Notes: a model not told the origin generated them from the letters alone. A DNA stretch of 64,000 bases from Takakia lepidozioides (GCA_030704615.1 CM060732.1:80166001-80230000), one strand, 5' to 3'. Positions 1 through 61,165 are shown, counted from the first letter of the stretch. A program made the numbers and translations.

Positions 1-300
1 AATACGGCGAGAACGAGGCAAGTGATGCTTGTTTGCTAAACCTGTAGCCCATGGCCAACCAAGGTAGCTGAACCCAATACTCCAACGATAGCCGAAACCC
101 ATAATGGGTAAAGGATGCAATTTGTGGAGTAGGTGCATTGAAATAAGCACCATGCACCTTGCCACTAACTGTTGCACATCCGTGTGCATGCCCCGCCACC
201 AGTACTGTCCTTGCAGCAAACTATGAGTGCGTCGCACCCCAAAATGTCCCAATTCCTCATGGGCATGGTGTACCAATGCGCTCGTTGTGTTGGATGAGGC
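1..300 (-). pseudogene. Integrase fragment: frameshifted HHCC Zn finger, most of the catalytic core deleted
   Basis: Frameshifted reading LVHHAHEELGHFG..RTHSLLQGQYWWRGMHTDVQQLVARCMV, then LHPLPIMGFGYRWS joined almost directly to QLPWLAMGYRFSKQASLASFSPY (late core). Confidence 0.75.
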
Positions 301-587
301 ACAATCCTCATTCGTCCATCCTCCCATACTCGGAGTAGGTGAGTCCCCTCCCACTTGAACTTTTTGGCTCGTTGTAGGATCCGATCTCTCTCCTTAGCAG
401 TCACACTGGCTGTTGTCTCTCCAGTACAAAGGTAGGCCAACACTGCTGCATCTTCATGTTCATCCTTAGCACCACCAAGCTCCTCACTGATCTCCGGATC
501 GTCATGCACACCATCTACATGACCAATGTTATGGGATGGACCAGCTTGAGCTCCCATTGCTAGGATGCACAAAAAGGCAGATGCATG

Positions 588-2144
588 TCATCCTGGCACC
601 ATCTCCTCATCCGTCTCACCATGCCACCGAGCTCCAGTATCATCATGCTCGCTCGTGCATGGATTATGACTCAATCCATCTGCATCCCGATTGACAATAC
701 CGGCTCGATGTACCACCTGAAAGTCGTATTCTTGAAGCATAAGTGCCCACCGTGCAAGCTTCCCTGTAAGCTTGTCTGACTTCATCAACCACTTCAGTGG
801 TTAGTGATCCGTGACAAGGGTGAAGAGATTGCCATAGAGGTAGCATCTGAGATGTGTCACTGCCCATACCGCAGCTAGACACTCCCCTTCATATGAACTA
901 TACTTCGCCTCGGCATCATTGTTTGAGTGGCTAGCATATGCCACTACAAACTCTCTTCCCTCATCATCCATCTGTGTGAGCACTGCTCCAATCCCCAGCA
1001 TACTCCAATCCGTATGTAGTTGGAAAGGCTGCCCCCGAATAGGCCGCCTCAAAATAGGTGCAGAAGTCAATCGAGCCTTGAGTTCCTCAAAGGCTTCCTC
1101 CTGCTCCTCCTCCCACTGCCACTCCTGACCCACCTTGGTCAACTTAATAAGAGCCTTTGCAATGCTGCTAAATCCCTTGACAAACCGTCGATAGTAGTTT
1201 GCCAACCCCATGAAAGCACGAACTCTGCTAACATCTATGGAGCGTGGAATGCGTGCAATGGCCTCCACCTTCATCTTTTGAACACCCAATCCTCTAGGGT
1301 ATATCATGTGGCCCAGATACTCAATCTGGTTGTGGAAGAACTTGCACTTCCCAGGGTGCAATTTCAACCCATGCGCTCTCAAGCGCTCAAACACCACCTG
1401 AAGGTGTCTCTCATGCTCCTCAACCGTGGCACTAAAGACGATGATGTCATCAATGTAACACCGGGCAAAGTCTAGCCCCGCGAGAATCCTATCCATAACC
1501 CTCTGAAACTCTGCAGGAGCATTCTTCAACCCAAATGGTAGGAAGCGCCATCGGTACAAGCAATCTTTCCCATGTTGGTCAATTCTCCAGAATGTCGTCT
1601 TTTACTTGTCAGCCTCTTTGATTGGCAACTGGTGGTAACCGGATCGCAAGTCCAATGTGCTAAACACCTTCGCATGTCCAATGGCATCAAAGATTTCCTC
1701 TGGAGTTGGCATGGCATATCTATCGGACTTAGTCTGACGATTCACAGGACGATAGTCCCCATACATCCTTCTTTCTGTCCAATTGCCATAGATATCCTTC
1801 TTAGCTGACATCACCGTTGCCGAGGCATAATCCCCGCCTGACAACTCCACCAATCCAACTTCGAACAACTCCATAGTCCGTGACTGGATCAATGACCTCT
1901 CCATGTCACTATACCGGTAGGGCCTTCGAAAGATTGGCGTGTCATTTGTCAAATCAATACGAAACTCCTGGCCCTTCAAACTCCCCAAATCCTTCAAACC
2001 GAAGGCAAAGCAATTTCTATAAGCCCTTAGAAATCGCTGGATCCTCCATCTCTCTCCTCCGGTGACTGTAGGTCCAACATCTGGTTCCCAATTGTCCTCA
2101 GTGACTGCAACCTTGGGTACATCAGGCTTGGGGGGAGGAGACAA
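588..2144 (-). pseudogene. Reverse transcriptase + RNase H of the Gypsy pol, with in-frame stops
   Basis: ORFs 1602..2144, 801..1559 and 588..788 share one frame: FSTLDLRSGYHQ, PFGLKNAPAEFQR, YIDDIIV, FMGLANYYRRF, VTDH*PLKW, LARWALMLQEYDF. Confidence 0.95.
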
Positions 2145-2539
2145 ATCCTTTGATTGCTAGATAGCAACCTCTTGGGCCTTGTCCGCCCAATCTGACTGTG
2201 GCGTAGCCTCCACTTGCTCTGCCATAACCACCTTGAGAACATCCTCTGGGGAAGAAACATTCTCAACCTCTTCAAAAACATTGGCCACCTTGGCCTCCAA
2301 CTGATCCTCTGTGTGTGGCTCTCCCCACTCCTCATATTGTTGCTTGAGAGATCCAAGGACTCTATCTTTCTGCATCTCATCCCACATCCGCCATGGGTGT
2401 TTGCACCCCATGATCTTGTGCTCGCCCCCACTCACTGCCTCAACCGTCCCGGTTGGCAGAGGGGATACAATACCAAATGGGAGTGCAGAAGTAGTTACCA
2501 CCATCTGCAACCTCCGTTGCTCAGCCATGCACAAGCCAA

Positions 2540-3490
2540 TGACCCATGTCAAGCAATTTAGATCCATTGCTTGACCCAACACATGTCGGCGTGATGCCTT
2601 TGACAGAGCTGGCACAGCTGTAGTGCCCGTGGCAAATCCCATTGCCCGCTCTCGCTCATCTGCATTGGGCTCCACCAATTGCTGTAGCACACTGTCCCAA
2701 ATCAACCCAGGACCATTGTCTCGAAAAGCATGAGACAAGGGAAAGCTCATGAGCGTAGGCAAGGCCGCACGTGGCTGCCCCACTCGATTTACCACTGCTA
2801 GAGGTGGATGGTCATCATGTCGCACCCTCTGTGGTTGCCTCCCTTGGTCCAAAATGCCTTCAAGTGTGAGATTGGGTGGCCGTTGAATGGAATCGTATGC
2901 TCTCTTGAGCAGCTCTGGTGGTGCAAGATTGGTCCACCACAATCAAGGTTGATGCGCTCGTGATCCCACCGTTGCTGCATCCAATAGCACCGCCGATCCA
3001 ATCCAAGACCGCACCTGATGCACACTGGCCATAACCCTAGCCCGAGAGTCCCCCATAAGAGGAACATTCTCCAAGATATAGGCTAGAGGTTGCACTTGCC
3101 TCGTCTGCAAGTCACGCAACACTCTCAACATCTCCCAAAACAAATGCGATCGTGCATCATGCAAGCCGTTCCCATGACCTGCGGGATAGTGTCCTTGGCA
3201 AGGCCATCTAGCTATCACCAAGTCAATGGCATCATGCCGGTCCAAATCATCCGCTCCCAGCAAGGTAATGTCTGCTGGCAAGGCCTTTTGATACCCTTGA
3301 ATTGCTGAGAGAGGCAACAACTCAGGGTACCGGTGTGTGAGCAAGGCGATGTGGCGCATAGAAATCCGCCGAGCTATCTCATCCTTCTCCACATACAAGT
3401 ACTTGCGTACTTTAATCCCAGCTTGCAAAACTCCTGCAAGCCCAGTGCTCATGCCTCCAAACAGGTCTAACAAACAAATCCCTGAGTCAG
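2540..3490 (-). pseudogene. DNMT3-like C5 cytosine DNA methyltransferase domain embedded in the retrotransposon pol
   Basis: Motif I LLDLFGGMSTG, motif II YVEKD, motif IV DLVIARWPCQG, motif VI YILENV, motif VIII AHQP*LWWTNL, motif IX ERERAMGF, motif X RRHVLGQAMD, in canonical order and in frame with PR and RT. Confidence 0.92.
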
Positions 3491-3849
3491 GTGGTTGCCA
3501 GGTAATGGGCACTATATCCAAAGGAGCTAACTGAGGAAGTCCAGGTGATGTCACTGAACTCCCCTCACTCACCAATGGATATGCCTCCTGCCATGCTTGG
3601 TGCACACACTCGTCTGCTACTCGATGCAAATTCCTAATTATACCCCACAGTGGAATATGAACCGACACATGAGGAAGCAAATCAGCCTTGTATGCCAATT
3701 GTTTGTCCTCAACAGGTGGTGGCCTATCATCTGCATGACTATTGCCCTCCAAGAGCTCACCACCCCAAGCCACCACCCCTGAGAATGCAGCCAATGTGGG
3801 CATCATGTTCCTATGATCCACCACTACATTCCCAATAAACCGCACTGGG

Positions 3850-4213
3850 AGCAGTGCACGTCGACCATCCCCTGACTGCCATTCCGGCCTGTAGGATGTC
3901 GTTTCCTCCCAGAAGTCCAAAGTAAAGCCCATCGGGTATAACACAGCCCCACCAACAAGCGCATCACTCGCGTCCATAACAATGGCTTTAGCTCTCATGA
4001 CAGAGCCATCTGTAGGATGATCTAACTGCAATCGAATGAAGAGCTCATGGCGTGTAATCCCTCGTGCCTTCTCTAAACCGCCCAAAGATGTCAAATGAAT
4101 TTGGAAAGGACAAGGCTCCAAATCCGCCTCTGTAAGGCCCAAGCCTGCAATTGCTGCTCTCCCCAACATCAATGGCTGTGCTCCCGAGTCCAACAAGACC
4201 CGCAGTGGCCTAT
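3850..4213 (-). pseudogene. Retropepsin-like aspartic protease of the Gypsy element
   Basis: RVLLDSGAQPLMLG ... DALVGGAVLYPMGFTLDF in ORF 2943..4241. Confidence 0.8.
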
Positions 4214-5338: not shown

Positions 5339-8300
5339 TCACTTGATACTTTCACCTTTCCTCATACTCTTCTCTGGCCACAGAGTCACCGTGCCTTTCA
5401 CGTGCGCTAGTGTGGTCTGGGGGGGGGCATCGTCCACATTTGGGCAAGGCAATGTAACACTTGGAAGCATGATCTCGTGGACTTTCACCTTGTACCACCC
5501 GGATCGAATGTCCTTGCAGTGGAACTTGTCAACCCCGGCTATTCCCACCACTTCCGCCTTGGCGGCGGCTGTCTTTGACCGCTTGTCATGGGGGTTCAGG
5601 AGAAACACAGGATCTGATATCTGCAGACACCAACATCAGGGTCCACTCAGCAACAAACATAGCAATGACAGGGTGAAAGTCAAGCGCAGCTGGGCATGGA
5701 AACGATCTTGGTTGCCACAATACTGAATCAGCAGCCAATTCACGGTGTACCAACGTACCTTGAAGCGAAGCTCGTCGCTGAGGGTGGCAACTGAGGAAAG
5801 CTGCCCACGTGTCTTCAACTGCAGCAGCAAAAAGAGGTTTAGTCAGACGGATAAGAATAACATGAACTCTGGTGGTTGCAATGGTATAAACACACCTCCA
5901 CGGAGCAAGCTAACAAACACCCTGCTCAGACCCTAGCACTACAACTTCCTGGCAAAAATAACCCTACTAAAAACCAGCCAGGCAAAGCAAGGAGCCATGA
6001 ATGCATGCCTGGGGAACCACGTCCTGCTGCGATGATGGTGCCGGGGACAGCCCACTCCTCTTGCTCACCTGCAATGAATACACATTGCAACGCTTCAGGA
6101 AGTGTATCCATAAAGGAAACCAACCAAGTAAGTTTGCGGAGAGGGGCTGGGAACAACCATACCTTGGGCGCTGCCTCCTCATGCCGGGGGGGGAATCCGG
6201 AATGCTGCCGCCGTAGCACTATGGTCGTAGGCGCAGGACCCACCTTCTTCACATTCGACCCCACTGCCACTCCCTGTACATGTGGTCCCTGCAAAACATA
6301 TAGTGCCAGCCTTGCGTGAGAGGGCATCCGGGGGGAACAAAACAAACATGGACTTTGGCTTCGATGTCATGTTGCAAACAGTAAGGTTAGTTTCACCTGC
6401 ATGGGCGCAGAAGTACTTCCCCCAACGACCCCATCCTCTCCCACATTCAAGCTGCCAGTCGGGGTCAGCTTCCGCGTGCTTGTGAAGACACGCACATCCT
6501 TGGAGCAAAACAAATCTTGGCAGTAGGGCCAGACTGTTTCTAAAAGGTAGTCTGAATCGGGCCCCTCACTGACATTGCCAGTGACATCAAACGACAATGG
6601 ATGGACCATGTTCAAAGGGGAGTTCCCCCTCCCCTTGTGTGGTGAATCATCCACTAGGAGGGTGTTGGATTCGTTAAATCCAGAAAATTCCGACCACACC
6701 CTCGACAGTCTCTTCTGTAAGTTCTGTACGGCAGGCCCTTTTGTGGGGTGTGGCTCTGTCAAGGGGTCACACTCCTCTTGTGACCACACAAAGAGGGGAG
6801 AACCCTTGACCCCCTGCATGACCACTTTGAAGATGTCTGCAACATTCCCCTTGGAAGCACAGGACCATATCCCAACGTAGAAATACCGGAAGAGAAGGTT
6901 TAAAAACTCGCAGACCTGGGGCCTTGGGAAAACATACTTGTTGGTGGTCAACACCCATGGCCAATGACGCCTCGGGTTGGGCTGAAAGTTAGGAATAGAG
7001 TGGCACAGGATCCCGTTCAGGTCTAGAACAATTAGTTTCGACTTTTCTATGAAAGGAGCTTTTGAAGGGGTGTCACGGGGTCTCACCTCAGTGGGTTGGG
7101 AGACAACAGTCACCCCGGAGGGCAAAGTTTCGGTCCCCCTGCAGCCTGGACCAGGCAAACTACCACCCTCTCCCCCTACAGCTTCCCCTTTTCCCCCATC
7201 ATGAGCAATGACCCCCCATCGTCCATGTCATCCCCACCAACTTGCTGGACCTCTCCCTCTTCAACGAGTGGACCCTGCCCCCCACTGTGAATATCATCAA
7301 CAACAGCCCGGACCTCTGTCACATCCCTACCCACTACAATTACTTCCTCCTTGTCAGGTACAATGGTCGCAGCAGGGGGGTCTTCCATAATGCCACCCGT
7401 CACACCCCCTTTTTGCCCCATCATGAGTTCCACTATCTTCTTCAGTTGTGCTTCCATTCCCCTCTCCCGCTCCGCAGAGAGAGCCGCAAGCCTCTCCAGG
7501 GCCCCGATGCGGGCTGCCATTGAGTTCCCCGCTCCCTACGCATACAAACACCCACCCGTACTGTTAAAAACCAGAAGAAGAGGCCGAATGTGCAGGATTT
7601 CAGGCATTCGGAGATGGCTAGGTTTGGCATAACACCCCTCGTGTACCATGCGTGGGGGCCCCACATACCCACCAAATCTTAGTACAACAACAGATTCATG
7701 AATGGAAACCGGACTTCAAAACATACCTGGCTCAAAACAGACTCTGATGGGGTGCCAGTCGCAGCGTTCTTGCACTCCGCCCCGAGCTCGGACAGTGACG
7801 GGCTCCGCGCTTTGCGTCTTTTCTGTATTTGCCCATCCACACACTGTCAGTACAAAATGCCAGGAGCATATGGACAAAGCACTGCCCTGCATATCACATA
7901 ACAACTAATTCTGCACAAGCAATAAAACCCACTCGTGGGTGTCTCTTCCATCAGAACATGCCACAACGTAAGAGCAATGAGAAGGGGGTGAGGGAGATTA
8001 CCAAACGGGCTGCTTGGCCTGCAACTCCTGCCCGGCCCCAACGCGAGGGGTTCGTGACACAAGCACGCGCTTGCTTCATCCCTTCAGCCTTTGCAAGTCC
8101 ACGAGGGGACTCCCAGTAGGCAACAAGCTTATCCCAATAGGCGGGTTCAGTGTTCATTGGCCTCACACCAGTCTTCGCCCATTTATCTTTCAGTTTTGCT
8201 CTTTCTCCTTTCATTATCTTCCCACATTGCTTCACTATAAAATCACGATTGGCAGGGATAGGTGTGTACTCGTACATTCCATTTATGCCCTCTATTACTG

Positions 8301-10734
8301 TTGACATGGCACTCTGGGACTGCTGGTCAATGTCTTGTACGCTTGAGTCAAGGTAACGCAATGCCAGGCCACGCAAATCACGCTGCCAGTGTTCCTTACC
8401 TTCGCAGCCAGCATTGATGACTCCATTTCCATGCACCTCCACCTTGTGGCGCTTTAGCCCTGCAGCCACCCTTCCCTCTCCATCTCCTTCCCATTGTTTC
8501 ATGGCATGACGTCGTTCCTTCCTCAGCTCTGATGTCCGTTTCCTGCCCCCATGCTCTGGAGCAGCGCCGTCATACGTTGTGGGGGGTGACTGATGTGTGC
8601 CGGAGGGGGGAGGGCCGTATGGAGATGTGGGAGGCCCCCATTGTGACGTGGCAACATCAGGAAGCCAGCGCCACGACCCCGAAGCAGGGGGGGCTCCCCA
8701 TGGTGCACTCTGTTGTGGAGACCATCCGGCAGGGGGTGGGTGCCAAGGTTGGTGTTGGTTGGCATTGTGTGGTGGCTGTGAGTGCTTTGCTGCAGCTTCA
8801 CTCCCCTTCCGCTGCCAAAAACATCCCACACACAAGGTGCATCAGCTGTAGTCCTACTGAACACAACGTCACCAGAGCACAAACCATCCCACAACCACAA
8901 CTATGGATTGGCTGACCTCAAACCCACTCCCCTGCAGCGCAAGTGCCAAAAACTGAAAAGGAGAGGGACAGAATGTCCTCATAACATGTAAGCCCATTCA
9001 TTGGTGAAGAAACAGAATGTGGGCGGGTTCACATCAGTACCACATGAAACTTACCAGGAAACAGAACATCCATCCGGGTTTTGCACATATCCAGTGGACA
9101 TCTATTCACACAATCAGCAAATGGCTGTATGGCGGAGCCCAGCAACGGAGCCCCAAAAGGCCTAAAGACTCTCAATGTTGGTAAACACAGGTGCAGACAC
9201 AATTCAATTGAAAGGATATTGCAGACCTAGCCTCGTTGGAGTTATCAACGCATATAGCAAATGCGTACTCCAACGCAGGTGCAATGACGTGACAAAGCAA
9301 CATTTCCTTGACCTAAAAACTAGTCCCTCTGCACACAGTGGTAGACCTGAAGGTTTTTCCACGATGTCCTCCCCCATGACACAAATTGAAAACATGTTCA
9401 GGGATGTTTTCTGCCTAACTTCATTTTCTGCCCAATCAGATCTCCTCTACGCTGATGATGTTGCCCTTTTGGCACAATCCCCGGTCTTTCTGCAACGCCA
9501 TATCAAAATTTTGGAACAGTTCTGCAAAGACTATGGGATGCAAGTCAATCTTAGCAAGACCAAGATCATGGTCTTCAATGGCCAGGCTGATCGTAGATTC
9601 ATCTTCAACCAGCAGGAAATTGAGATTGTCAAATCATACCGGTACCTAGGTCTGGTTATCCACTCCCCCAAGTTTCACTTTGCAGCCACTGCCTTGGACA
9701 GATTGACTAAAGGTAAGGCGGCCTCCGTCCGCCTTCACGCCAAATGCAAGCAAATACATCTGCGGCATCCCCCGACCAAAAAGTGGTTGTTTGACACCGT
9801 CGTCAGCCCTGCTACCATCAATGGTTGTGAGTTCTGGGCACCTGGTGTCCCTGTCTCCTGGTGGGAAAAGAATTTGGAACCATTACAGTCATCTTTTCTC
9901 CAAGCAATGCTTGGCGCCAGGAGCACAACTCCATCTCAGATCCTAGGTGCAGAGTTCGCATGTGTACCATTGCAATCCGAGGCACAGTTCAGGCTTACAA
10001 TCTTTCTCCATAGATTGCAGGCCCTTCCACCCAAAGGGCTAGTGGCAAGGGCCCTCACAACATCTATGAGGCTCAAAGCTGCAGGTTTCGGGAACTCCTG
10101 GTATGCTCGAGTGTTTATTGAAACGTAACGGACTTTCTACTGCTTTCCTATTACCAATGAACCCACATGAGGTGGACATCACATCCAGACATGACCGCAA
10201 CAGACTCATTCGGAGAGAGCTTATGGAATTACATGTCAAGAGAACTTGGATGCTACCCAATCTCACAACAAAGCTCCACTTCTATCGAGAGACATTCTTG
10301 GTGCTCCGCGATGATAGAATCTTCAGACCAAATTACCTTTCAGCACCCTTACCTCCTTCCCTCTTGAGGGCATTGGGGCGGTTCAGGGTGGGTTCCCACA
10401 ACCTACGGATAGAGACTGGCAGATGGGAAAACCTGCAACGGGAGGACCGCCTATGTCCAGCTTGCATAGGGCGCAGCAAGGAAATTGAAACTGAAGAACA
10501 CTTCTTCTTCTACTGCCCTGTATACTACGACATCCGTTTGAACAACTTTGTGGATATGTGCATCCCAGTTTCAGTTTCAGGAGAACTCAACGCCCAGAAA
10601 ACAAGAACACAAGTAGGGGTAGAACTCACCTCATGCGCAGCGGTTTTGTGCCGTTTGCGCACCTTTTGGAGAGACTCTGCAGATGGAGGTGCAATTTCCT
10701 CCGAACTGTCCTCCACCTCATCGTCGTGGGCCAT
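5339..10734 (-). CDS. CACTA TnpA-like (Ptta/En/Spm- and TNP1-like) multi-exon gene containing an FCP1/NIF phosphatase domain; at least one frameshift
   Basis: Probable first exon MAHDDEVEDS..AAHE|gtgagt (10734..10630). ORF 7951..8835 reads YWDKLVAYWESP..KAEGMKQAR..NPSRWGRAG. Terminal exon 5339..5620 reads AEVVGIAG..FHCKDIRSGWYKVKVHEI..LPCP..VTLWPEK. GT-AG bounded small exons lie between. Confidence 0.7.
6480..7045 (-). CDS. FCP1/SCP-like (NIF) HAD-superfamily phosphatase domain
   Basis: KLIVLDLNGILCH, FPRPQVCEFL..LF..FYVGIWSCA, LFVWSQEEC, KRLSRVW, NTLLVDDSPHK in ORF 6367..7158. Confidence 0.85.
9240..9440 (-). mobile_element. Inverted fragment of a second LINE family (same family as 22610..23330)
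   Basis: The reverse complement GAAAATGAAGTTAGGCAGAAAACATCCCTGAACATG..CATGGGGGAGGACATC closely matches 22771..22840. Confidence 0.7.
9441..10540 (+). mobile_element. Non-LTR retrotransposon (LINE) fragment: RT C-terminal half and C-terminal Zn-finger region, frameshifted
   Basis: LLYADDVALLA, VNLSKTKIMVF, YRYLGL, then RFRVGSHNLRIETGRW..RLCPAC..ETEEHFFFYCPVYYDIR. Confidence 0.9.
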
Positions 10735-12722
10735 GCTATACTGTCAAAATCCAAACTCGAAGACCGCCCACCGCCTCTCCTTCCCTCTCGCACCGACGCC
10801 CATCTGTACCGGATTCAGTCCGAGCCAGGCGGGGGCTCCTTCGCACCGCGGGGCTGGAATGTGCAGAAGTGGGAGGAGGTGATGCTGCCTCGGCGGTCGA
10901 GCGCTTCTTACTAGGCGTGGACATAGACCATGACAAAGATGAAGACGAGCGAGGACATAGACCATGGACCAAGACAAAGACGAGCGAGAAGACCAAGACA
11001 TGCAAAGGAGGAAAGAAGGACAAGGAGGGGAGTGTGATCACACACCCCCCCGATCTGTAGTGAAGATCCGGCCGTTGTTGATTTCAAATATGAACACGTG
11101 TCGTGCATCCGACACTATGGCCTTTTTCGACTTTGAGACGTTAAACCCTAAACCACTTACAATCCCCAGACAACTAGATGTAGTGATTCACACAACTGAC
11201 ATGGATCCGTTAACTTTTTTCGTTCAAAATTAGGCGAAGGAAAACACACTGCAATGATGCCGTGTATGGCTCCGCTTTACATGCATTCTTGGAGAAAATG
11301 CGCATGATGTGTGAGAAGTGAACACAGTGCTCTGCCAAATGATTCAGCAAAAACAAACTCAACTGTAGTGGTTCTCCCATCGCAGAGAAGGGTCCATTCG
11401 ACACCCATCGCAACCATGCCAGGTTGAGGTCTCACACACACACACTACACACCGAGAATTTGCGAACCCACATCAGCTGGGAGAACATGGAAAACAACCG
11501 TGGATCACATGCAAGCATGAATGAGAAATGGGTTTATGTTACATGGGAGATTTTGGTGTACGCAGCGCGACATGCAACTCTGCTACATACTCCATAAGGC
11601 TGTGTCCAAGACACAAGTGGACAGGGGGAGGCCGGTGAGTCTGTACCACAATGGTAATCATACAGCAGGAGGGTACTGCTGCCTCCCACAACGTGCAAAA
11701 GCCGCCGGCTGCAGGATGCTAGGCATGCGAACTCGGGCACACACACCTCCTCCTCTCCACCCACTGCCGTCCCAACCAGTGCAAAACAACCGTGCATGCA
11801 TTGACTGCCCTCTGGCTTTCTCTCCAGCATTTGGGGTCTGCGATCTGCTCACGTAAGTGTCTTTGAATGCGACGATCAAAGGATCCGGTCACTTGCAGTT
11901 GCCGTCTCAAGGGCAGCATTGCAAGAATCAGAAATTAAGTAAGAAAGATGGTGGAAGAAGCTGCAAACAGCAAATGAGTGAAGTGGCAGGGCGATGCTCC
12001 ATTTTTAACATGCTCCCCTTCCCGCCATGGTGATAGAGCCACACAAAATGGAACTCCCTTCCCGCCAACGGTGCAATTTCACGGCAACGGAACGGGATTG
12101 TCCGCCGAAACGTGATTTGGAGATGGCCTAAGACAAGTGGCGCAGGTTCTGGCCTTGTAGTCAGGTTGTTCACACTTCAATGCACACATTTCATACACAT
12201 TCAACCATATGCCCAAGATCACAACGTCTCAATCATCATGAAAATTGAAATTCCACGTACGTCCTCCGATTCCTCACACACACACGAACTGTAGAGACAG
12301 GTCGTTTTCCAGGATGTCGTTGTTTGAGTCGATTTTGGTCATTTTTCTCAGTGTCTTGTTGAAAAGATTCTAGTTATGATGGGAAGCATCGTGATGGCTT
12401 TTTAATGGTTTGCTGTTGAGTGTAACTTTTCATCATGTTGTGGGAATCTACCGGTTGGTATAAAATGTCAACTGTCTTCTCTGCCAAAGGATGTGCGGCT
12501 GAACCTTTCAAAATTGAGATTGCAGGAGGAGGGAATTGACGGTAGTGAAATGGGAGTGGCAGAGCCAAATTGAGGAAATCTCTGCAAAGGAGAATCCGGC
12601 CCCCTGCAACGGCGTGCACAAACAGCATTGAAGAGGCTCCCCAACAAAAATGAGTTCCCCTCGCCCATGCGGAGGACTTCCAATTAATCACCCCTGACAT
12701 AACAGAACACCGAGATGACAGG

Positions 12723-17554: not shown

Positions 17555-17760
17555 TGTAGTTTCCAGTTTCACTGGTGTCACAACTGCCTTCAAGTCAACA
17601 TCAAAATTAAGTCCACCTATGCACAAATCGCAGAATGTCTCATGACACCATCTGCCGCCGCTGGTTTGGCATGATATGATTGTAATTCACAACCTTAATG
17701 AACGCTTTCAGCCTTGACCTCTTTGCGATCTTCTTCTGTGACTGCTTCTTCATAATTTAT
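17555..17760 (-). pseudogene. RPL27: Captured fragment of 60S ribosomal protein L27 (copy 1)
   Basis: The minus strand reads MKKQSQKKIAKRSRLKAFIKVVNYNHIMP and, after an intron-like gap, NFDVDLKAVVTPVKLETT. Confidence 0.8.
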
Positions 17761-17995
17761 GAAAGGGAAAAGCAGCTACACATCAAATTCTTGCAAGTAC
17801 AGGGGGGTATTCATGCCTCCTTGGAGAAAGAGTGCCATAAACACAGACACATCCTTAAATGTAAAAATGGAGAAGCGAACGTCTGGTGGCAATAACTGCC
17901 TAAACCAGAATTATACTCCATTCCAGCGCACATGTAAAGGGTCGGATGATAACTCGGAATCCCAGTTGGAGATAATGAGACGAATACATGACTAT

Positions 17996-18230
17996 CTTGC
18001 GAGTTTCAACTTTCTTGGAGGTAGTTTCCAGTTTCTCTGGTGTCACAACTGCCTTCAAGCTGGGTTTAGATGAATTAAGTCCCACTCGCAAATGCAGAAT
18101 GTCTCCCCTCATCTGCGTGGGCAAAATGGGGTTTGGCATGATATGATTGTAGTTCACAAACCAAAGGGCATATTCTTCAGCCTTGACGTCTTTGCGATCT
18201 TCTTCTGTGACGCCTTCTGCATAACTTGTG
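17996..18230 (-). pseudogene. RPL27: Captured fragment of 60S ribosomal protein L27 (copy 2)
   Basis: MQKASQKKIAKTSRLK..VNYNHIMP..LKAVVTPEKLETTSKKVETRK; direct repeat of copy 1. Confidence 0.75.
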
Positions 18231-19040
18231 AAATGGAAAAGCAGCTACACATCAAATTATTGCAATGCCACTCAATGGCACTATGAACGTTTCGAGCATG
18301 CTGTCAGAAAACTAGACGGGCAAAAACCCAATTCAGCAGCCTCACCTTGCGTGGATACTTGGGAATTGATGCCAGAAGGGCATGCCCGTATGCGCGCTCC
18401 ATCGGCCTCTATCCAGCACATTCTGTAAATGATGAATGACCAAGACCCCGATGTCACACCGTTCTGAGAAGCCACTACGCGCGCTCACAGTATACGAAGG
18501 CCTTGCCGTGTCAGGATTTCCATTCCCACGTCCCGCCATGTCCGACGCAGCACTTGCATCCTTGTCTCTGCCAGGTGGAGGCAGCACGTATTAAAATATC
18601 TATTCCCCCAAGGCCACATTTTGTTTACCTCTTTTTGTGAAAGCCACGTCAGCAAATGTGCTGCCGAGTCATGGGTGCAATGAATGCGCAGTGGTTCATG
18701 GAGTCGTTGAGTCGACTACATATTCACTTTAATGAATAAATATCTTTATTCCATTAATCGAATTAGGAAAGAAAATTTGTAGTCGCATGTGCAGTAATTA
18801 CAACCACTTGTAATTTTGGCTTTTTCAAATTTTATGTATTTACGCAATTCGTAAAATAGCCCGGAATTCTGCTACGACTCCGGAGTCGTTGACCCTACTT
18901 CTGTCCGCCGTCTGAAATGCCCCCGTGGGCCCACATTGTCTGTTTCGACTCTCCAGTAGTCCCGTTTACTACCAAGTGGTTCCCGGAGTGGTCGCGGACA
19001 TGCAGTCGAATCGGAAAAGACACGAATGCTTCTAGTGTAT

Positions 19041-19750
19041 ACCTCCTCCCGGCTAGGCCACCCAACTGAAATACATCATCCTGATTGTCCACCAGGACTA
19101 CCCCAGAAGTCACCATACTACACTCAATGGCTGGTCTAGCTGGCAACTCCTGCAACCTTGCAGCTGCCGCTTGCCATGGCGCAGCTGTGGCTGTTTTCAC
19201 CCTTGAATCCAAGGCATCCATGCACTGCACCTGATCCGCTATCCCCGCAGATAGTGCTGATGCATCACCACTCTCACAGAGTGCAGCTGCCAGTCTAAAC
19301 ACTGCAGCTGGCCGCATCCCGGGCATTGCAATTGTCGTGGCAGAAAACAATGGAGCTTGGCAAATTGCCGTAGCCGCCCCCAACAATGTACTGGCTGCAC
19401 CTTGCTTTGCAGTATCACCTACTGGCATTTCCTGAGCCATACCAACTCTCCCCAATGACACTCGTGGCTCTACTTCTGACACACTTGGGCGAGCGGGTGC
19501 CATCGATGGCATAGTTGGCACTGTCTTAGCCAATGTGAAAGATTGTGGAAGCCTTGTCTGCCAACTTGCTTCCTCTTTGTGGATCAAAATCCACATCCGC
19601 TCCTCTGGCTCAGGAACAGCTGTAGAGTCCACATGCAATGGTCCTGCAAGTGCGGCTCCACACATGAAGCCCATACCCATCTGGTCTTCCCTAGGCATAG
19701 GAGGTTGTGTAGGTGGGGCTTGAACCTCAAGCCTTGGAGCTGGCGCAACA
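19041..19750 (-). pseudogene. Gag-to-protease linker region of the Gypsy element, on the far side of the CACTA insertion
   Basis: ORF 18895..19698 reads into the right CACTA TIR; its frame is continuous with the protease once the CACTA element is removed. Confidence 0.75.
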
Positions 19751-20349
19751 TGAGTAGGGTGAATACAAATGATATGGAATTTATTTCATCATGCCCAAGT
19801 AGGACTGCTTGGTGGCATATTGTGATTCTGACAAATTGCAGGTTTGTCTTTATGCCTTGGCTGATGCATGACCTGCCATAATTAATGGCTGAAAAGGTAA
19901 GATGCTGCAACCTGTGGGTCATATCCAAGATGTATGTGTGAAAACGTGTCTTAATAGGGCAGGCTGGACCATGGTACCTTGCCCTTTGCATGACCTCAGC
20001 ATTTTTATGCTCCTTCAATACATGACCTGCTGGTAAGGTATGTGTGCAGGCTGAACCAAGAGGCCTTGCAACCTGCACAAGGGCAACAATATCTTATCTT
20101 GTCCCACACATGAACACATGATTCATTGGCGAAGATGGCCGGATCTCGGGTGTTCAAGATGCTTGCATCCCCTACATGAAAACCCCGCCCTCCCACCCTA
20201 TTTTATCATGATTGATTGGGTGATGTCAACTCATGGAAGCTATGACAAGAATGGAAATGTTAGATGGTGCCCTGTTTTGGGTTGTTTGTCTTTAATTGAC
20301 AATGACCCTAGTGGGTCTTGTCCATGTCTTGACATGACATGAATATCTC

Positions 20350-23300
20350 TCCTCTGGAATGGGGGTTATGGAATTGTTGTCCCGACTTCCATCTCTGAAA
20401 AAATTGAACAAAATTGAAAAAATTGGTTGCAGGGAATTTTGGAGGTTTTCATCCAAAAATACATTTTTTTCCCTAGTGAACATTTCTTCACTAATACCTG
20501 TGAGGTTTGCTTCATCCGAAACATCAAACCGGAATATGGTCTGATTGATTGCAAAAAAAAAACTACCGTCAGTTTTTAATTTTTCAATCCAACCTGGATG
20601 AAAAAAAAACTTCATCTGACAGGACCTAAATACGGGGCAAGACAGGTATAAAAAAGTTTTTATATAAAAACCCCCGATGTTTTTCTTCTAACCTAGATGA
20701 AAAGCGGACTGCATCCGTCTAGTGCAAGTCAGGATGAACGCGCGATGTCTTTTATCTTCCGCGAATGAGAAACTGACAACGTCCGTGGGCATACAGGCTG
20801 GCGGATTGTTTTTCATCCTGAGAAGGATGAATGACGGGCCAGAGCCAGACAGGGGGAAGGAAAAACCCTGGGTAACCCTTAATGTCTTGCTTTTTGTTTT
20901 TTTTACGCCTTGCGAGAGTGCGCGCGATTTGCTGCACAAGGAAACCACTGCAATGATGGCGGAGGTACCACCTGCCTGCTTATGAAGTTTCCTAAGAGCC
21001 CTCCTCTGGATCTTTGATGAATGGCGAGTCTTGGTAGAACAAGGAAAGGTCTCTCTCTCCATCCCTTTATAAACCCTACCTTTTGAGACCAAGTTTTTTT
21101 TTTGGTGCTTGGCAAGCCTTTGTTTTGGTTAAGGTAGCAGTGTTGTGGTGCTGGCGGAGACCTCCCTGCACGGTTAGGCTTGTGGAGAGATGACGACTCT
21201 CCCCAAACTAATAAAAAAAAGGTTCTTTTTCTATTGTCTTGCTTCCCTGCTTTCTTTGGCATTCTCTGCGCTTAGATTGAAGTGTATTTGACCTCGATAG
21301 CAAGTGTGGAAGCCTGATACTCACCTCGTGCATCCTCACTAATTCACAATACGTTGTGGTTGTTTTTGGGACGGGCACAGGTGAGGGCTTCCACTTAATA
21401 GTCTGATGTCTAGGCTGCTGTGGATGCCAAGTGGGATTGCAGAGCAGGGGAAGGATCGCTTGCCAGGGACTCATCTTAAAATGTTGAAAAACTAAACTAC
21501 TCTATGGTTTTTCTTGATCCTACCTCTTTCTTCCTTGATTTTTGAAGAACAGTGTAATGCTTTCTACGATGGGCTATTTCGGCCTTGCCAGTGGAAAACC
21601 TCTGTTTTGTTGTGACAACCAGGTTTATGATGGCGTGTGTGAGAGACACACATCTGTTTTCCAGGCACTAGTTTTCTTGGCTTACCTTATGGTAGTTGGA
21701 AACAAATTGAGAGGCTGCAAGGAACTGTTTGCTACAGCTACTCGGGTACCCCTGTTGGTAAAATGCCCCCAACATGGCTTTGTTAGCTAGATGCTTAGGC
21801 CAGGGTATGTTGAAGTTTCTGCTGTGGATATTCGGACACTGAATGATGAAATATGGCAGCAATATAAATGGTAAGTGGGTTTTTGAGGCAGCCAGGGGTG
21901 GTCAAGTGGAAATACCCCCTAACATGTTGTAATGACATGGTCAAATGTGGAATGATGTGAAGGGTTTGTATGTATATATATTGTCACAGGATGTGTATGC
22001 AGTCCTTTATCCTTACCTTGTTAGGTCATGAACTTTGATTTTCAGCTGTAGCAAGAAATAAAGGTATAGGGGTATTCTGGAAAACTTACTGGACATATCC
22101 ACCTCCCCTATGGGGGCAAGCTGTGCTGCATACCAGTCTAAACAAATACTGGCAGGGCAAGGTATTTTAAATCTGTGATGTCCAAGTGTTCTTTTTGTTT
22201 TCTCTGTTTTCTTAATAAACCCTCCATGACACCCATGGGGTTTGAATAAGTATGCTTGGATTACAGCTTGTGGACAATAAATCTGTATGACCATTTGACC
22301 TGCAACACATCAAGGCCAAAATATGGCCAAGTACCCGCCATCCCACCCAGACCTCTGAATGTGTATCATGATCATGACTGGTGGTCAATCAGCATCAGTG
22401 ACATACTTTTTGGGTTATGAATAATACTGACATGAACACATTACTGTGCATGGATGTAATTCTAGATTTTCTAAGCTTGGTGATTGATGGATGGTGCCAC
22501 TGTTAAGTGGCTGATATGTCTGATTATTCTTCTTATTCATGACAACAACCCTAGGGGTCCTGTCTTTGTCTTGACATGACAAAAAGTATCTTCCTCTCCC
22601 TCTCTCTTTTTAACTTTTTCTCCAAAGGGGTCAACTCTGAGGTTAGGAAAACTATGCTTTGTCGCATTATTAGACCTGCCTTGAAGTACGGATCTGCAAT
22701 ATGGGTTGATAAATCTGACTTAGAGGCTGTAATGTCCAAAGCCATGTCTGTTGCCATGAGATTGTCTGATGAAAATGAAGTTAGGCAAAAAACTTCCCTG
22801 AACTTGTTTCCAGTCAGTGACATGGGGGAGGACATCTTGGATGACCTCAAGGGTCTACCCACTCTCGGCACTAGACTGAAATTTAAACTCAGGGCAGGAA
22901 GCCTACCTTTGAACAACAAACAGAAGCAGAGAGGAAAGAGAGAGTGCAATTGCCCGTTGTGTGGCAATCTTAAGACAATACTCATTTTCTGATACACTGT
23001 CCGGGGTTCTCTCACCAAAGAGACTCTCTCTTCAAATCTATAGAGGGAATTGTGCCTGTACCTCTGTTTACCAACTTTGAAAGTCTCAAGGCTGAGCCAA
23101 AAGCCTAGGCCCTCCTGAGGCCTAGTTATTGGGCAAATCATACACAACAGATTGATGCTTGTGTGAAGGGATTTCTAGAGGATATCTGGAAAACCCAGAT
23201 TAATTCTATATATGAAGGTAAGTCTTACTACCAACGTCAGCCCTGACAGAGGCAGGTTCTGTCCCATTTGTTTCCGCTCAAACTGGGGGAGGGGTCAATG

Positions 23301-25720
23301 GCCACAAGGCTACGGCAAACAACGTCTTATGCGTACAATCTTTTTAACTTTTTCTGCACCCTCTCTCCCTTGTGGTTTGTTTATTTTTGTGAGCAACAAA
23401 AAAGAGAGGGAAAATACTTTTTGTCATGTCAAGACAAAGACAGGACCCCTAGGGTCGTTGTCATGAATAAGAAGAATAATCAGACATATCAGCCACTTAA
23501 CAGTGGCACCATCCATCAATCATCAAGCTTTAGAAAATCCAGAACTACATCCATGCACAATAATGTGTTCATGTCAGTATTATTCATAACCCAAAGAGTA
23601 TGCCACTGATGCTGATTGACCACCAGTCATGATCAGGATATACATTCAGAGGTCTGGGTGGGATGGCGGGTACTTGGCCATAGTTTGGCCTTGATGTGTT
23701 GCAGGTCAAATGGTCATACAGATTTACTGTCCGCAATCTGTAATCCAAGCATACTTATTCAAAACCCATGGGTGTCATGGAGGGTTTTCTTAAGAAATCA
23801 GAGAGAACAAAAAGAACACTTGGACATCACAAATTTTAAATACCTTGCCCTGCCAGTATTGGTTTAGACTGGTCTGTAGCACAACTTGCCCCCACAGGGG
23901 AGGTGGATATGTCTGGTAAGTTTTCCAGACTACCCCTATACCTTTATTTCTTGCTAGAGCTGAAAATCAAAGTTCATGACACAGCAAGGTAAAGATAAAG
24001 GACTACATACACATCCCGTGACAGTATATGATACTGTCAGTACACCCTTCACATCATTCCATATTTGACCATGTCATTACACCATGTCCAGGGGGTATTT
24101 CCACTTGACCACCCTGGCTGCCTCAAAAACCAGTTACCAGTTATATATTGCTGCCATATTTCATTGTCAGCCGAATATCCACAGGCAGAATCTTCACCAT
24201 ACCCTGGCCTAAGCATCTAGCTAACAAAGCCATCCGGGTTGGAATATAACAGGGGCCAACATGGGTACCCGAATAGCTGCAACAAATAGTTCCTTGCAGC
24301 CTCTCAAATTGTTTCCAACTACCATAAGGTAAGCAAAGAAAACTAGTGCCTGGAAAATAGATGGTGTCTCTCACACAAGCCATCATAAACCCGACTGTCA
24401 CAACAAAGCAGAGGTCTTCCACTGGCTGGGCCGAAAATAGCCCATCGTAGAAAGCATGTTCTTCAAAAATAAAGGAATGAAAGAGGTAGGATCAAGAAAA
24501 ACCATAGAGTAGTTTAGTTTTTCAACATTTTAAGATGAGTCCCTGGCAAGCGATTCATTCCCCTGCTCTGCAATCCCACTTGGCATCCAGCAGCACCTAG
24601 ACATCAGAATATTAAGTGGAAGCCCTCACCTGTGCCCGTCCCAAAAACAACCACAACGCATTGTGAGTTAGTGAGGATGCACGAGGTGAGTAGTAGGCTT
24701 CCACACTTGCTATCGAGGTCAAATACACTTCAATCTAAGCGCAGAAAATGCCAAAGGAAACAAGGAAGCAAAATCAACAGAAAAAGAACCTTTTTTTACT
24801 GTTTGGGGGAGAGTCACCATCTCTCCACAAGCCTAACCGTGCAGGGCCAGCAACAACACTGCTACCTTAACCAAAGCAAGATCTTGCCAAGCACAAGAAA
24901 AAAAGAGCTTGGTTTCAAAAGGTAGGGTTTATAAAGGGAGGGAGAGAGACTTCCTTGTGCCACCATTCATCAAAGATCCAGAGGAGGGCTACTAGGGAAA
25001 CGTCCTAGGCATGCAGGTGGTGCCTCCGCCATCACTGCCACGGTTCCCTTGTGCAGCAAAAAAACAGACAACTAAGACAGGGAATCTTCCCTCATCACTA
25101 AGCCACCGCCATCGCCTTAAAGAGCTCGCCCAGGCGTCGCTCACAGGAGCCATAAACACTCAACGATTGGCAGCTCAAGGTATCTACAGCACGAGTACCA
25201 TCGCTCCTCACAAGCTGCCATCGCGCGCGCTTATGCAGCGCAAAAAGAAAGACATTAGGGTTGCGCATGGTTTTCCCCTGCCTGGCCAGTCATCCATCCT
25301 TCTCTGGATGAAAAACATCCGCCAGTCTGTCCGTCCGACGGACGTTGTCCGTTTCTCATTCGTGGAAGATGAAAGACATCGTGCTTTCATCTTGTCTTGC
25401 ACTTCAACGGATGTAGTCCGTATTTCATCTAGGTTAGATGAAAAACATGGGGGATTTTTTATAAAAAAACTGTCTTGCCCTGTATTTAGGTCCTGTCAGA
25501 TGAAGTCTTTTTTTCATCCAGGTTGGATTGAAAAAGTAGAAACTGACGGGAGTTTCACAGGTTTTTTAGTGAAGAAATATTTCACTAAAAATATAGTTTA
25601 TAAAAAAAAAATTGGATAAAGAACATCCAAAATTCCCTGCAACCCAATTTTGCAATTGTTTTCAATTTCCTCAAGGATGGAAGTCGGGACAACAATTCCA
25701 TAAACCCAGTGTCCAGAGGG
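20350..25720. repeat. Large inverted repeat: arms ~20350..22610 and ~23401..25720, spacer ~0.8 kb
   Basis: Collinear reverse-complement matches at the outer ends (GGTTATGGAATTGTTGTCCCGACTTCCATC), the middle (CTGCGCTTAGATTGAAGTGTATTTGACCTCGATAGCAAGTGTGGAAGCC) and the inner ends (ACCCTAGGGGTCCTGTCTTTGTCTTGACATGACAAAAAGTAT). The right arm has a ~150-bp insertion near 25070..25220. Confidence 0.9.
22610..23330 (+). mobile_element. Internally deleted LINE 3' fragment in the spacer of the inverted repeat
   Basis: IIRPALKYGSAIW, KFKLRAGSLPLN..CNCPLCG, then an HFL..CP-like segment and the terminal motif GGGGTCAATGGCCACAAGGCTACGGCAAAC. Confidence 0.7.
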
Positions 25721-25770
25721 AGAGAGAGGGAGAGAGAGGGAGAGTTCAGGAAACAAAATGAGGCCAACTT

Positions 25771-31150: not shown

Positions 31151-33919
31151 ATGCAGGCCAGTGAAGAAGCGCCCTCAGGGAAGAAGCGGAAGCGGGACTC
31201 AGCTGGGTTGCGGCTACTCAAGAAGGAGGCTGCGGAAGCATCCCGCCTGCACAGCCTTTTATTTGGGAAGTTGGAAGAGGCAAATAATGTTGGTCAGGAG
31301 ATTGTTGTGGTGAGCTCCTGTTTGGCTGGTCAGCGGGCCGTTTGGAGATGAATTGCTTGGGCTGATAGGACTATGGAGTGGGTTAGATTTTGTAAGAGTG
31401 AACTGAAAGCAACGGACGAGTACATGTTTCAGCCCTTTTAGCTCTTTTGGTCCAAAGCCAAAGGTTGTCCTCTTTCTTGCCCCTTTTCTGTTCCTGTTTG
31501 TGACTTGTCATGGACGGTCTCAGTTATCTTTTCGATGACTTCCCTTTTCCTACTCTTAATTGTCCTCAGAAGATCTCATGGACATATCGTGGATGGCGCT
31601 TTCCTGACACTACTCCGCCGGAGGAGAATCTGGAAGCTTAACTTTCTGCTTGGCCTATGGCTGCCTATGAAACTTTCACCATTGTGAACAATGGAAAGCA
31701 AGTGATACCTTCTTGGGGATGGTTGGACAGCTGGTTCCTGCATAAATCATGAAGCCTACGCCTTGGGTTCTGGGCTTGGTGACTTGGAAGCTTATTGGGC
31801 TCTCAGCACCAGACAATTGCCATAATGTGGGGGGCTTCTGCCAACTGGCGGACAGAAACTCAGCCCTAAGTTGCAATAACAGTTTTGCACAGCCAGCTAC
31901 AATGTGGTCATGGGGAAGTGACTATTGACTTACTGGTTGCTTAGGACAGCATGCTAGAAAACCGGATGAATCCACAACCACCCCAGTTGTTCAATCTGTG
32001 ATACATGGTTATGATCGTATTGCCAGGGACAATTGTATCCCGAAAAGGTGGGGCTGTGACAGGAAAAGAGAGAGCACCTTTAGGCTTGATTTTCCTCCCT
32101 GTTTGCATGATAGGAATTGATCTGGAATACTCATACGTGCGTTTCTCTCAGAAAGCTGCAGATGTTGGAAAGAAGAGGCCAGTCTGGGAAGATGAAGAAG
32201 ATGTCAATACTTCAGTGAGAGTCGCTACAGTAAGCCGGCTTCGAAAGCTGCGGATAGATGATGGAGAGGAAACTCTATCAGGTCAGACATATGCCACAAG
32301 GCTACGGGCACAGCACTCGAAACTCAATCCAGGAACCACATGGGCGGAGCTTCCATGGGAGAGGAAACTGAGAGGAAGAGGTAGCAGTGATGGCAATGAC
32401 ACCATTGATTCAGGTATTGCTGTGCTGATACAATCACAATGGATGGTTTTTGATGTACTCCTGTGATGACCAAGTCATACCATGGTCTGGATATGTGATA
32501 GGCTCTATAGCATTTGGATCCTTTGGCACAGGTTCTTAACAAGGTTGTCAAATGGATATGTTTTCACCTTTAGGAAATCATCATGAGAAATTGAGGCCAA
32601 ACCTTCAAGAGGTCATTGTGTGGATCTTCATTCCATGTATGCGGCCTGATAATGTTGGCGGTAACAGATCCCGTTAAACTGGATTGGGGACTGTGTCTGA
32701 GGTGGTTGAAAGAATGTACTCATAAACGCTGCGTGCTGTAGCTGTGTCTTGTCCAATTACTTATCATTGTGTAACAGGTGAAGCGTCAGGGTTGGAGGAG
32801 GAGGAACAAGATGCAGGTGCCAGGTATCTAGAGGGACTCGGAGGAGAAACGAAGGATGCGTATTTGGCCAGAGACAATGAAGGTTCAGCTTATGGGGCAA
32901 CCTCATTACTACAGTATAGTGAACATGTTGTCAAGAGCAAGTCCCGGCTTCCACAAGGGTTGCTTGAAATATCTCAAATGCGAGATGCAAACAGTGTGGA
33001 GCCCTCGAAAGGTGTTGTCCAATCTGTTGATTTCCACCAGAATGCCCAGCTGCTCTTGACTGCAGGATTCGACAAGAAATTGCGGTTTTTTCAGATTGAT
33101 GGAAAGAGGAACCCCAAAGTTCAGAGCATTTTCTTGCAAGACTTTCCTGTTCACAAAGCAGCTTTTGTTCCAGATGGATCTGGCGTAGTTGCTGCCGGCC
33201 GGCGAAATTTCTTCTTTGTTTATGATTTAGAGGCTGGCCGAGTGGACAGGGTTAATTGTGTTATCGGCCGTGAAGAAAAGAGCCTTGAAAGCTTTGAAGT
33301 CTCGCCGGATAGCAAAGTGGTGGCCATTTTAGGAAATGAGGGCTATATTATTCTTGTCTCTCTCCGAACAAAACAGTCCATTGGCACTCTGAAGATGAAT
33401 GGAAGTGTAAGGGCGGTTTCCTTTGCTGCTGAGGGGCAGGAGTTGGTGACTACTGGGGGAGATGGAGAGGTTTATCACTGGGATTTGAGGTCTCGCCGGT
33501 GTTTCCATAAAGGGCGAGATGAAGGGTGTGTGAAAAGCACAGCGCTGGAAGTGTCTCCCAATAGTCAGTTTTTTGCAACGGGACAAGGAAGTGGGGTTGT
33601 AAATCTCTATAATAGGGATGGGTTTCTGGGAGGAGTGACAAGGCCTTTAAAGGCTGTTATGAACCTTACAACCAGCATCGATGAATTGAAGTTCAATTGT
33701 GACTCACAAATTCTGGCCATCTGTTCTCGAATGAAGAAGGATGCCTTCCGGTTGGTGCATTTGCCGTCATATACAGTGTTCTCAAACTGGCCGTCACCGA
33801 AAACCCCTCTTCAGTATGTCCACTCAATGGCTTTCAGCCCCGGTGGAGGGTATTTTGCTGCTGGAAACGCTGCTGGCAGAGTTCTTCTCTACAGGCTTCA
33901 CCACTATAACTACGCTTGA
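31151..33919 (+). CDS. UTP18: U3 small nucleolar RNA-associated protein 18 (WD40); exons ~31151..31309, 32152..32413, 32778..33919
   Basis: PVWEDEED..RLRKLR..Y..RLRAQHSKLNPGTTWA; DAN..PS..VVQSVDFH..QLLLTAGFDKKLRFFQIDGKRNPK; RLVHLPSYTVFSNWP; FSPGGGYFAAGNAAGRVLLYRLHHY. GT-AG junctions keep the frame. Confidence 0.95.
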
Positions 33920-60980: not shown

Positions 60981-61165
60981 ATAGGAAGTGAGGTGCCAAC
61001 AAGGCATGAGATACACGGAGGCCCTGCCATTGTTTTACTGATATGAAGTTTTATGGAATGATGCTAGGGCTAACAAGGTGTGACATACACTTAAGCCCTG
61101 TTGTTGACTAATTCGGTATTTAATAGCAGTGCATATACCGTGCACATATCAGTCTTTCACCTATA

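Follow-up and report, generated by a model that had tools for sequence, protein, structure and literature searches.

A dead copy of a Gypsy retrotransposon with a DNMT3-like methyltransferase domain and a conserved stop codon in the moss Takakia lepidozioides

A 64,000-nucleotide stretch of the Takakia lepidozioides genome (hereafter, the window) holds on its minus strand a dead copy of a Gypsy retrotransposon that is present in the host in high copy number. The first open reading frame (ORF) of this element ends in a DNMT3-like cytosine methyltransferase (DNMT) domain and a conserved stop codon. The reading that we consider probable is that the enzyme is made at the level of Gag, cut free, packaged and used to methylate the element's own new DNA, with the copying enzymes obtained by readthrough only. 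DNMT-carrying Gypsy elements were earlier known from a single alga and were read as a local capture, while the data presented here point to an old lineage. Copies of that lineage became numerous in land plants. One of these is the model liverwort Marchantia, for which mutants and methylome tools are available, and the question asked in 2018, of how a captured DNMT might benefit an element, becomes testable. The conserved stop alters the expected enzyme dose, and the split repeats at the ends suggest that the DDE integrase works by a route unusual for its kind. In automatic annotation, such copies are also scored as host methyltransferase genes, which may distort bryophyte DNMT inventories.

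Layout and decay of the window copy

One minus-strand frame running from 4253 to about 280 carries a protease, the DNMT3-like domain, a reverse transcriptase (RT) and an RNase H, in that order. The features, numbered from the first letter of the window, are:

19038..19722, minus strand: 5′ part of this ORF, displaced (Gag zinc knuckle-protease linker), by tblastn to Marchantia P0007
4214..19037, plus strand: CACTA (En/Spm) DNA transposon of 14,824 bp, with terminal inverted repeats, Transposase_21 and DUF4218
3861..4211, minus strand: aspartic protease, LLDSGA at 4196-4179, 55-61% identity with full-length land-plant relatives
2508..3482, minus strand: C5 cytosine methyltransferase domain of DNMT3-like type with Pfam, PDB and profile matches, its motifs I-X in canonical order
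2151..2159, minus strand: conserved in-frame UAG followed by CAA UCA, end of the Gag-protease-DNMT ORF, type I readthrough context
1302..1994, minus strand: reverse transcriptase (RVT_1), YIDD at 1457-1446, decay stop at 1602-1604
726..1115, minus strand: RNase H (RT_RNaseH and RT_RNaseH_2), decay stop at 801-803
1..587, minus strand: RNase H-integrase linker, H2C2 zinc finger (~283-150) and post-core fragment (82-2), by Pfam, contigs and alignment

The protease has no Pfam match of its own in the Pfam scan, and was assigned by alignment to the full-length land-plant relatives, which align with the Asp_protease_2 regions of Klebsormidium nitens P0236. Within the DNMT domain, motifs I (LFGGMSTG, 3464), II (YLYVE, 3401), IV (WPCQG, 3212-3192), VI (ILENV, 3077), VIII (2960), IX (ERERAMGF, 2657) and X (VLGQAMD, 2582) were located. 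Pfam also recognises DNA_methylase (PF00145; E 2.6e-9, 37.4 bits against a cut-off of 22), RVT_1 (E 3.7e-24), RT_RNaseH_2 (E 4.1e-33) and Integrase_H2C2 (E 5.3e-14), so that both profiles proposed as a check of the original prediction for the methyltransferase and the RT, PF00145 and RVT_1, find their match. The integrase foreseen there is present in part: its H2C2 zinc finger survives, in the next frame past a frameshift near 277, but the catalytic core is deleted near 72-82.

The copy is dead. Its decay stops lie at 588, 801, 1602 and 2943, the last of which (2943-2945, within motif VIII) inactivates the DNMT. At 588, 803 and 1604, nearly all covering contigs from four runs read a different letter (among the 40 of 507 places shown). 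An earlier description of the frame as broken only by point-mutation stops is correct for four of the five, the fifth, at 2157-2159, being a conserved feature of the family. The same description had the frame start at 4213. It does run from protease to RNase H, but 4213 is simply where the CACTA element interrupts the ORF just before the protease, leaving a 3-bp target duplication (4211-4213 and 19038-19040), and the ORF resumes at 19038-19722. This displaced piece matches residues ~463-630 of Marchantia P0007 (tblastn, E 2e-17) and is the sole match to the gag-region profile in the window; gag and the 5′ repeat were not found within the 64 kb. Contigs from runs X1, X5 and X9 join 4210 directly to 19038, the empty site, so other copies are free of the CACTA insertion.

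In the host the family is abundant: run X1 places 20,934 contig pieces on 4.4 kb, a figure which is not a copy number. Contigs cover the DNMT region throughout. Their summed depth is lower over the DNMT and protease than over the RT, although such depth can neither rank the parts nor reveal DNMT-less copies. Among the contig joints listed, those that skip the DNMT are single contigs each. Runs X9 and X10, whose RNA origin is a guess, contribute low-depth contigs of other copies, which are not evidence of expression.

The DNMT3-like domain and the family that carries it

By its sequence and by the fold of a relative, the domain is of the DNMT3 type of C5 methyltransferases, predicted to methylate DNA in intact copies. 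Compared with solved structures (with an X at the stop), the window domain matches DNMT3A (3e-9) ahead of DNMT3B (1e-4), HaeIII (1e-3) and DRM2 (1e-2), and with a 52-row profile of the family the values are 2e-24 for DNMT3A, 2e-9 for DRM2 and 8e-9 for HhaI. The stop-free relative P0001, 70% identical to the window domain, has a fold predicted with a pLDDT of 93.7, for which DNMT3A is the best structural match (E 2e-18, TM 0.84 by target length). Sequence and fold alike place the domain nearer to DNMT3A/B than to DRM, DNMT2 or bacterial enzymes. The catalytic Cys is kept in 176/176 aligned rows, and the Glu of motif VI (ENV) in 179/179. Plant host DNMT3 is marked by a C-terminal DUF3444 domain, and DRM by permuted motifs (accessible text of PMC6453930). 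Since DUF3444 has no Pfam match in the window or in its relatives, and since the motif order is canonical rather than permuted, a host plant DNMT3 or DRM identity is ruled out. The original prediction of a DNMT3-like domain, not permuted in the manner of DRM, is thus borne out by motif order and by the PDB, profile and fold matches.

With the first half of the window DNMT as query, 33 longer proteins were retrieved (E ≤ 1e-8, at most 73% identity). The named ones belong to Marchantia polymorpha, Calypogeia fissa and two Sphagnum species, and share the window-type layout. A short-protein homologue search added fragments only, the named ones from Calypogeia and Marchantia, and a viral-contig set gave one distant DNMT (L081, 28%). 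Physcomitrium, hornworts, ferns and seed plants do not appear among the named matches of the homologue searches, in which most matches are nameless. In a set of 80 metagenome loci (the best of 118, several repeating one insertion and all chosen by their DNMT match), a protease precedes the DNMT in 50 of the 58 with enough upstream room, and an RT follows it in 38 of the 47 with downstream room. The idea that all other copies might lack the domain does not hold: in many of these DNMT-chosen loci it is found together with protease or RT.

A wider search with the family profile, which spans the protease and linker too, yielded 563 clusters at E ≤ 1e-30, and two layouts can be distinguished among the best 150 of them. 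In the first, protease-DNMT-RT, the named members come from Klebsormidium nitens, Closterium, Mesostigma and Marchantia, the sequence of the Klebsormidium and Mesostigma members being seen only up to the DNMT; the protease-DNMT part is found in Closterium, Mesostigma and K. nitens. The second, RT-RNase H-DNMT-integrase-PHD, has named members in the chlorophytes Hariotina and Cymbomonas. The K. nitens protein GAQ93235.1 reads zinc knuckle-protease-DNMT and is collinear with Marchantia P0007 through protease, linker and DNMT (29% over 569 aa, E 1e-54). K. nitens P0236, in a record marked partial, ends just past the DNMT.

Separate DNMT and RT trees, as had been proposed, were built quickly with IQ-TREE on chosen subsets (44 of 180 DNMT rows and 28 of 80 RT-RNase H rows; unrooted and free of host DNMT3 rows). 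The two layouts separate in both (SH-aLRT 99 for DNMT, 100 for RT-RNase H). Protease-DNMT elements cluster together in the DNMT tree, with which the RT tree agrees for the rows that have an RT, and the window copy sits among moss and liverwort elements on its own branch. DNMT and RT distances correlate (Mantel r 0.79 over 78 elements, and 0.68 within the 63 of the RT-RNase H-DNMT-integrase-PHD layout). Because the trees split alike and the distances correlate, one captured enzyme has likely travelled for a long time with one RT lineage, its position changing once.

Between the window and the loci, dN/dS is 0.12 for the DNMT (28 of 38 pairs unsaturated), 0.09 for the RT (5 of 25), 0.17 for the protease and 0.37 for the linker, values for which synonymous sites are near saturation and which two divergent lineages alone drive. 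Among close decayed copies, pN/pS amounts to 0.62 (0.59-0.68) for the DNMT, 0.37-0.56 for the RT and 0.78-0.82 for the linker, so that, as far as these ratios tell, the constraint on the DNMT is real, though weaker than that on the RT. The expectation of purifying selection, as opposed to neutral evolution, is therefore upheld between lineages, and less strongly among close copies. That a fragment of host DNMT3 was inserted once and then evolved neutrally would agree with the decay of the window copy (four decay stops, a frameshift and a deletion). It has next to no probability when set against a layout shared across streptophytes, congruent trees, a dN/dS of 0.12 and the absence of DUF3444 and introns; the layout, trees and dN/dS between lineages refute it. 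The element belongs to a Gypsy family, with a layout that recurs in Marchantia, Calypogeia and Sphagnum.

A stop codon conserved between the DNMT and RT domains

The DNMT-RT interval is in frame in 35 sequences (34 loci and the window), of which 27 are distinct, and these related copies all have a stop at the same position (27/27). CARYY comes directly after it in 25 of the 27, versus 4 of 392 decay stops of the same elements, the most widely shared decay stop being found in 15 of 71 copies. A further eleven loci, which carry indels, were not counted; eight of them show a stop with CAACCC at that offset. The signal is common to three lineages with linkers of 378, 420 and 516 nt, and the frame stays in phase across it. 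Judged by this comparison, the stop at 2157-2159 is a conserved feature and not decay, and from its presence in all 27 copies together with the CARYY context it follows that the DNMT ends the Gag-protease ORF. A methyltransferase fused into pol between protease and RT, as first proposed, is thus correct as to position but not as to ORF, the domain lying before the stop.

In the window, the stop context UAG CAA UCA is an exact instance of the type I readthrough motif, UAG CAR YYA (PMC3542737, accessible text). The full CARYYA occurs in only 2 of the 27 copies, the usual moss context having C at +6, and the stop codon is UAA in 7 of them. Marchantia P0007, P0009 and P0012 and Calypogeia P0013 end 124-126 residues after motif IX, like moss P0026, and five algal or nameless relatives (P0036, P0116, P0255, P0256 and P0220) have no stop at the matching place. 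Similar readthrough signals in plant LTR elements are said to have been described in 2003, by Gao and by Havecker and Voytas.

Readthrough of this stop would likely be needed for RT, RNase H, integrase and PHD to be made. Could splicing that removes the stop, or reinitiation, produce them instead, with the DNMT still at the Gag level? In some Marchantia gene models (P0011, P0023) the DNMT is indeed continuous with the RT, a portion of the linker being absent, and an AUG lies six bases past the stop in the moss family. That AUG is however absent from the window and from L025 and L068, the Marchantia models are automatic predictions from decayed copies, and both the phase kept across three linker lengths and the retained CARYY context speak against such a route, which we hold to be improbable. 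With readthrough, we infer that land-plant elements would make much Gag-protease-DNMT and little RT-RNase H-integrase; the conserved stop likely makes the DNMT far more plentiful than the copying enzymes.

An abundant DNMT might also act in trans, on host chromatin or on rival elements, as a mobile epigenetic writer, rather than mainly on its own cDNA. A position before the stop predicts the high output that this would take, and host copies are very many, as the contig pieces of run X1 indicate. Such a role is nonetheless unlikely, if a shade less so than splicing or reinitiation: the enzyme brings along no targeting domain, CG and CHH methylation is already served in bryophytes by a host DNMT3 (accessible text of PMC6453930), and the K. 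nitens methylome stays land-plant-like (accessible text of PMC5890265).

Element ends, proposed cycle and known systems

The ends of the window copy lie outside the window, and the terminal structure is known only from relatives ~75% identical to it in the RT, which lie outside its own family. Three of these (L030, L053, L070) are complete, measure ~9.1 kb without nested inserts, and have the layout A-body-B-A-B, a split-repeat arrangement also seen at the 3′ ends of L005, L008, L061 and L077. L026 is A-body-B, and L017, L019, L020 and L049 end in B alone. Complete relatives start with TG (TA in one decayed copy), end with CA and are flanked by 4-bp target duplications, exact in five of six testable loci (TCTC, AAGG, AATC, TTCA, CACA). 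B1 is preceded by a purine tract, and the B1/A2 junction is a near-perfect 14-bp palindrome (seven junctions shown). Relatives carry Integrase_H2C2 and rve, with a PHD finger at the C-terminal end of the integrase (E 9e-12; 12 loci). A DIRS/Ngaro tyrosine-recombinase identity is ruled out by these integrase domains and the 4-bp duplications.

The stretch that follows A1 is complementary to positions 164-179 of A, ~26 bases past a TATA-like box. Of 18 copies, 2 have 16 perfect pairs and 10 have at least 9, against control maxima of 6-8. The duplex of 5′ end and primer site reaches -24.6 kcal/mol in the two best copies, and exceeds all 40 controls in five of six copies selected as well kept, L012 being no better than control. 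By this pairing, the site after repeat A in relatives is likely one of self-priming, for which Tf1/Tcn1 offer a precedent (PMC6317226, accessible text).

In the cycle that we propose, the DNMT of working copies would be translated at the Gag level, then likely cut free and packaged, and readthrough of a few per cent at the conserved stop would supply RT, RNase H and integrase. The 5′ end of the RNA would prime its own reverse transcription, giving a cDNA with normal B-A repeats, [B A]-body-[B A], which would circularise and be cut by the integrase at the palindromic B/A junction. A two-repeat circle would yield A-body-B-A-B, and a one-repeat circle A-body-B. The split repeats, 4-bp duplications and palindromic junction suggest such circle integration, to which we give an even chance; recombination of B1 with B2 after insertion would also give the A-body-B form. 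The DNMT would methylate the cDNA, probably at CG, so new copies may arrive pre-marked like host heterochromatin, and the PHD finger would guide the choice of insertion site.

Active self-methylation of this kind is, on the sequence data, slightly favoured. Contrary to it, a yeast assay of the Klebsormidium domain was negative, CpG content is at background, and the DNMT exceeds the RT in pN/pS among close copies. CpG observed/expected is 0.48-0.57 in the element and 0.46-0.59 in the host background; with no depletion beyond the latter there is no signature of self-methylation, and CpG depletion was dropped as an argument. The yeast result and the missing depletion would suit a domain that binds DNA or RNA, or acts as a decoy for host DNMT3 partners, catalysis not being the selected trait. 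We judge this quite unlikely, given that the catalytic Cys and Glu are invariant among rows merely 30-45% identical. Extending the self-methylating reading to its full history is tentative and less probable than not: a Gypsy clade spanning the green lineage would have kept one DNMT3-like enzyme since before the chlorophyte-streptophyte split, moved it once within the polyprotein, gained a leaky stop in land plants, and loaded its particles with active enzyme to pre-methylate a circular cDNA, which the DDE integrase would insert from the palindromic circle junction, guided by PHD.

In the open literature searched, no report of land-plant Gypsy-DNMT3 elements was found, in keeping with the original remark that they are not standard there; subscription papers, Repbase and unseen supplementary trees, in which bryophyte copies may occur, fell outside this scope. 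One supplement of PMC12344493 gave no match, and the accessible parts of 10.1101/363937, PMC7466625, 10.1101/2021.11.30.470311, 10.1101/2022.06.16.496473 and PMC12885004 were also covered. In the accessible text of bioRxiv 10.64898/2026.05.21.726589, "streptophytes (Gypsy-DNMT3)" is cited as earlier work only. The EpiLTRs/DAM-LTRs of that preprint are likewise LTR elements with methyltransferase and chromatin-reader domains, found in Cymbomonas too, but their DNMT is sister to DNMT4 and accompanied by DAM and a chromodomain, whereas here it is DNMT3-like with a PHD finger. Phygy of Physcomitrium is also a moss non-chromovirus Gypsy element with a 4-bp duplication and a similar size, 7.7-10 kb against ~9.1 kb, but differs in its NCGN duplications, tRNA-Trp primer site and lack of any listed extra domain (REXdb; PMC6317226, accessible text). 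A Phygy identity, which would have joined CG-centred insertion to a CG methyltransferase, was rejected: NCGN occurs in 0/5 exact duplications of the relatives, which have no tRNA-Trp primer site, the primer-site region of the best-kept ones pairing with repeat A itself (a judgement made by eye rather than by comparison with tRNAs).

As in tobamoviruses with type I readthrough (PMC3542737, accessible text), the UAG CAA UCA of the window, an exact match, precedes a polymerase; here it stands in a retrotransposon, after protease and DNMT. SymbioDIRS-Dnmt3 shares a DNMT3 within a retrotransposon and A-body-B-A-B repeats, and two of its copies methylated CG de novo in yeast (PMC5890265, accessible text). 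It has a tyrosine recombinase and a DIRS RT, in contrast to the DDE integrase, 4-bp duplications and Gypsy RT found here.

The window element is almost certainly of the KnitGypsy-Dnmt3 kind. KnitGypsy-Dnmt3 was described in K. nitens as an element under purifying selection that combines Gypsy domains and DIRS-like split repeats with a DNMT3-like domain free of introns and of motif permutation (de Mendoza et al., 2018; PMC5890265). In its accessible text, the enzyme gave no methylation in yeast, a result its authors call inconclusive, and the element is reported from K. nitens only and read as an acquisition in that lineage; neither Marchantia nor PHD is mentioned in the parts accessible, supplements included. 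In the window family, too, a DNMT3-like domain without introns sits in a Gypsy protease-RT-RNase H-integrase element, and complete relatives of the window copy are A-body-B-A-B. GAQ93235.1, which we infer to be a KnitGypsy-Dnmt3 copy, falls in the same DNMT group (SH-aLRT 99, in an unrooted tree without host DNMT3). The published element had been mentioned from the start, but its closeness, in layout, DNMT group and the split repeats of relatives, was underrated. Two differences stand out. The elements described here live in land plants at very high copy number, with relatives that span the streptophytes and a sister group in chlorophytes, and the DNMT, published for KnitGypsy-Dnmt3 as part of the same ORF as the RT (accessible text), is here separated from it by the conserved stop.

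Sequences carried within the CACTA element

Three further features lie inside the CACTA transposon that splits the retrotransposon ORF:

6370–7227, minus strand, NIF/FCP1-like phosphatase ORF (PF03031, E 1.7e-13)
9166–10880, plus strand, reverse transcriptase (RT) fragment (RVT_1, E 6e-11)
17556–18265, diverged direct repeat (79%)

Contig depth suggests that the phosphatase ORF is a regular component of this CACTA family. Over the RT fragment, which is probably a nested retroelement, depth exceeds that of the flanking sequence, and the direct repeat attracts high-depth contigs of X9 and X10, two of the sequencing runs aligned to the window.

Other repeats and host-like sequences in the window

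The site where the retrotransposon's gag is absent is adjoined by a fold-back element with long inverted repeats, and other sequences are found further along:

20297–25725, fold-back element
20928–22598 with 23404–25060, inverted repeat pair (90%)
20560–20842 with 25282–25555, inverted repeat pair (86%)
32726–33919, plus strand, WD40 gene without introns, about 397 codons long
54077–54550, plus strand, partial ATP-binding domain of an ABC transporter (E 3e-5)
61150–64000, 100-bp tandem array and complex short repeats, at the window end

The WD40 gene presumably resembles UTP18. The ABC transporter fragment is probably a host-gene exon.

Relatives of the DNMT3-like domain elsewhere

On viral contig L081, a distant DNMT-like match (28%) occupies positions 3152–3730. 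Intact polyproteins of the order RT-RNase H-DNMT3-like-integrase-PHD, of which no description was found in the literature searched, form a large sister group among the homologous proteins (P0035, P0037–P0058 and many of P0107–P0248), its named members being from Hariotina reticulata and Cymbomonas tetramitiformis.
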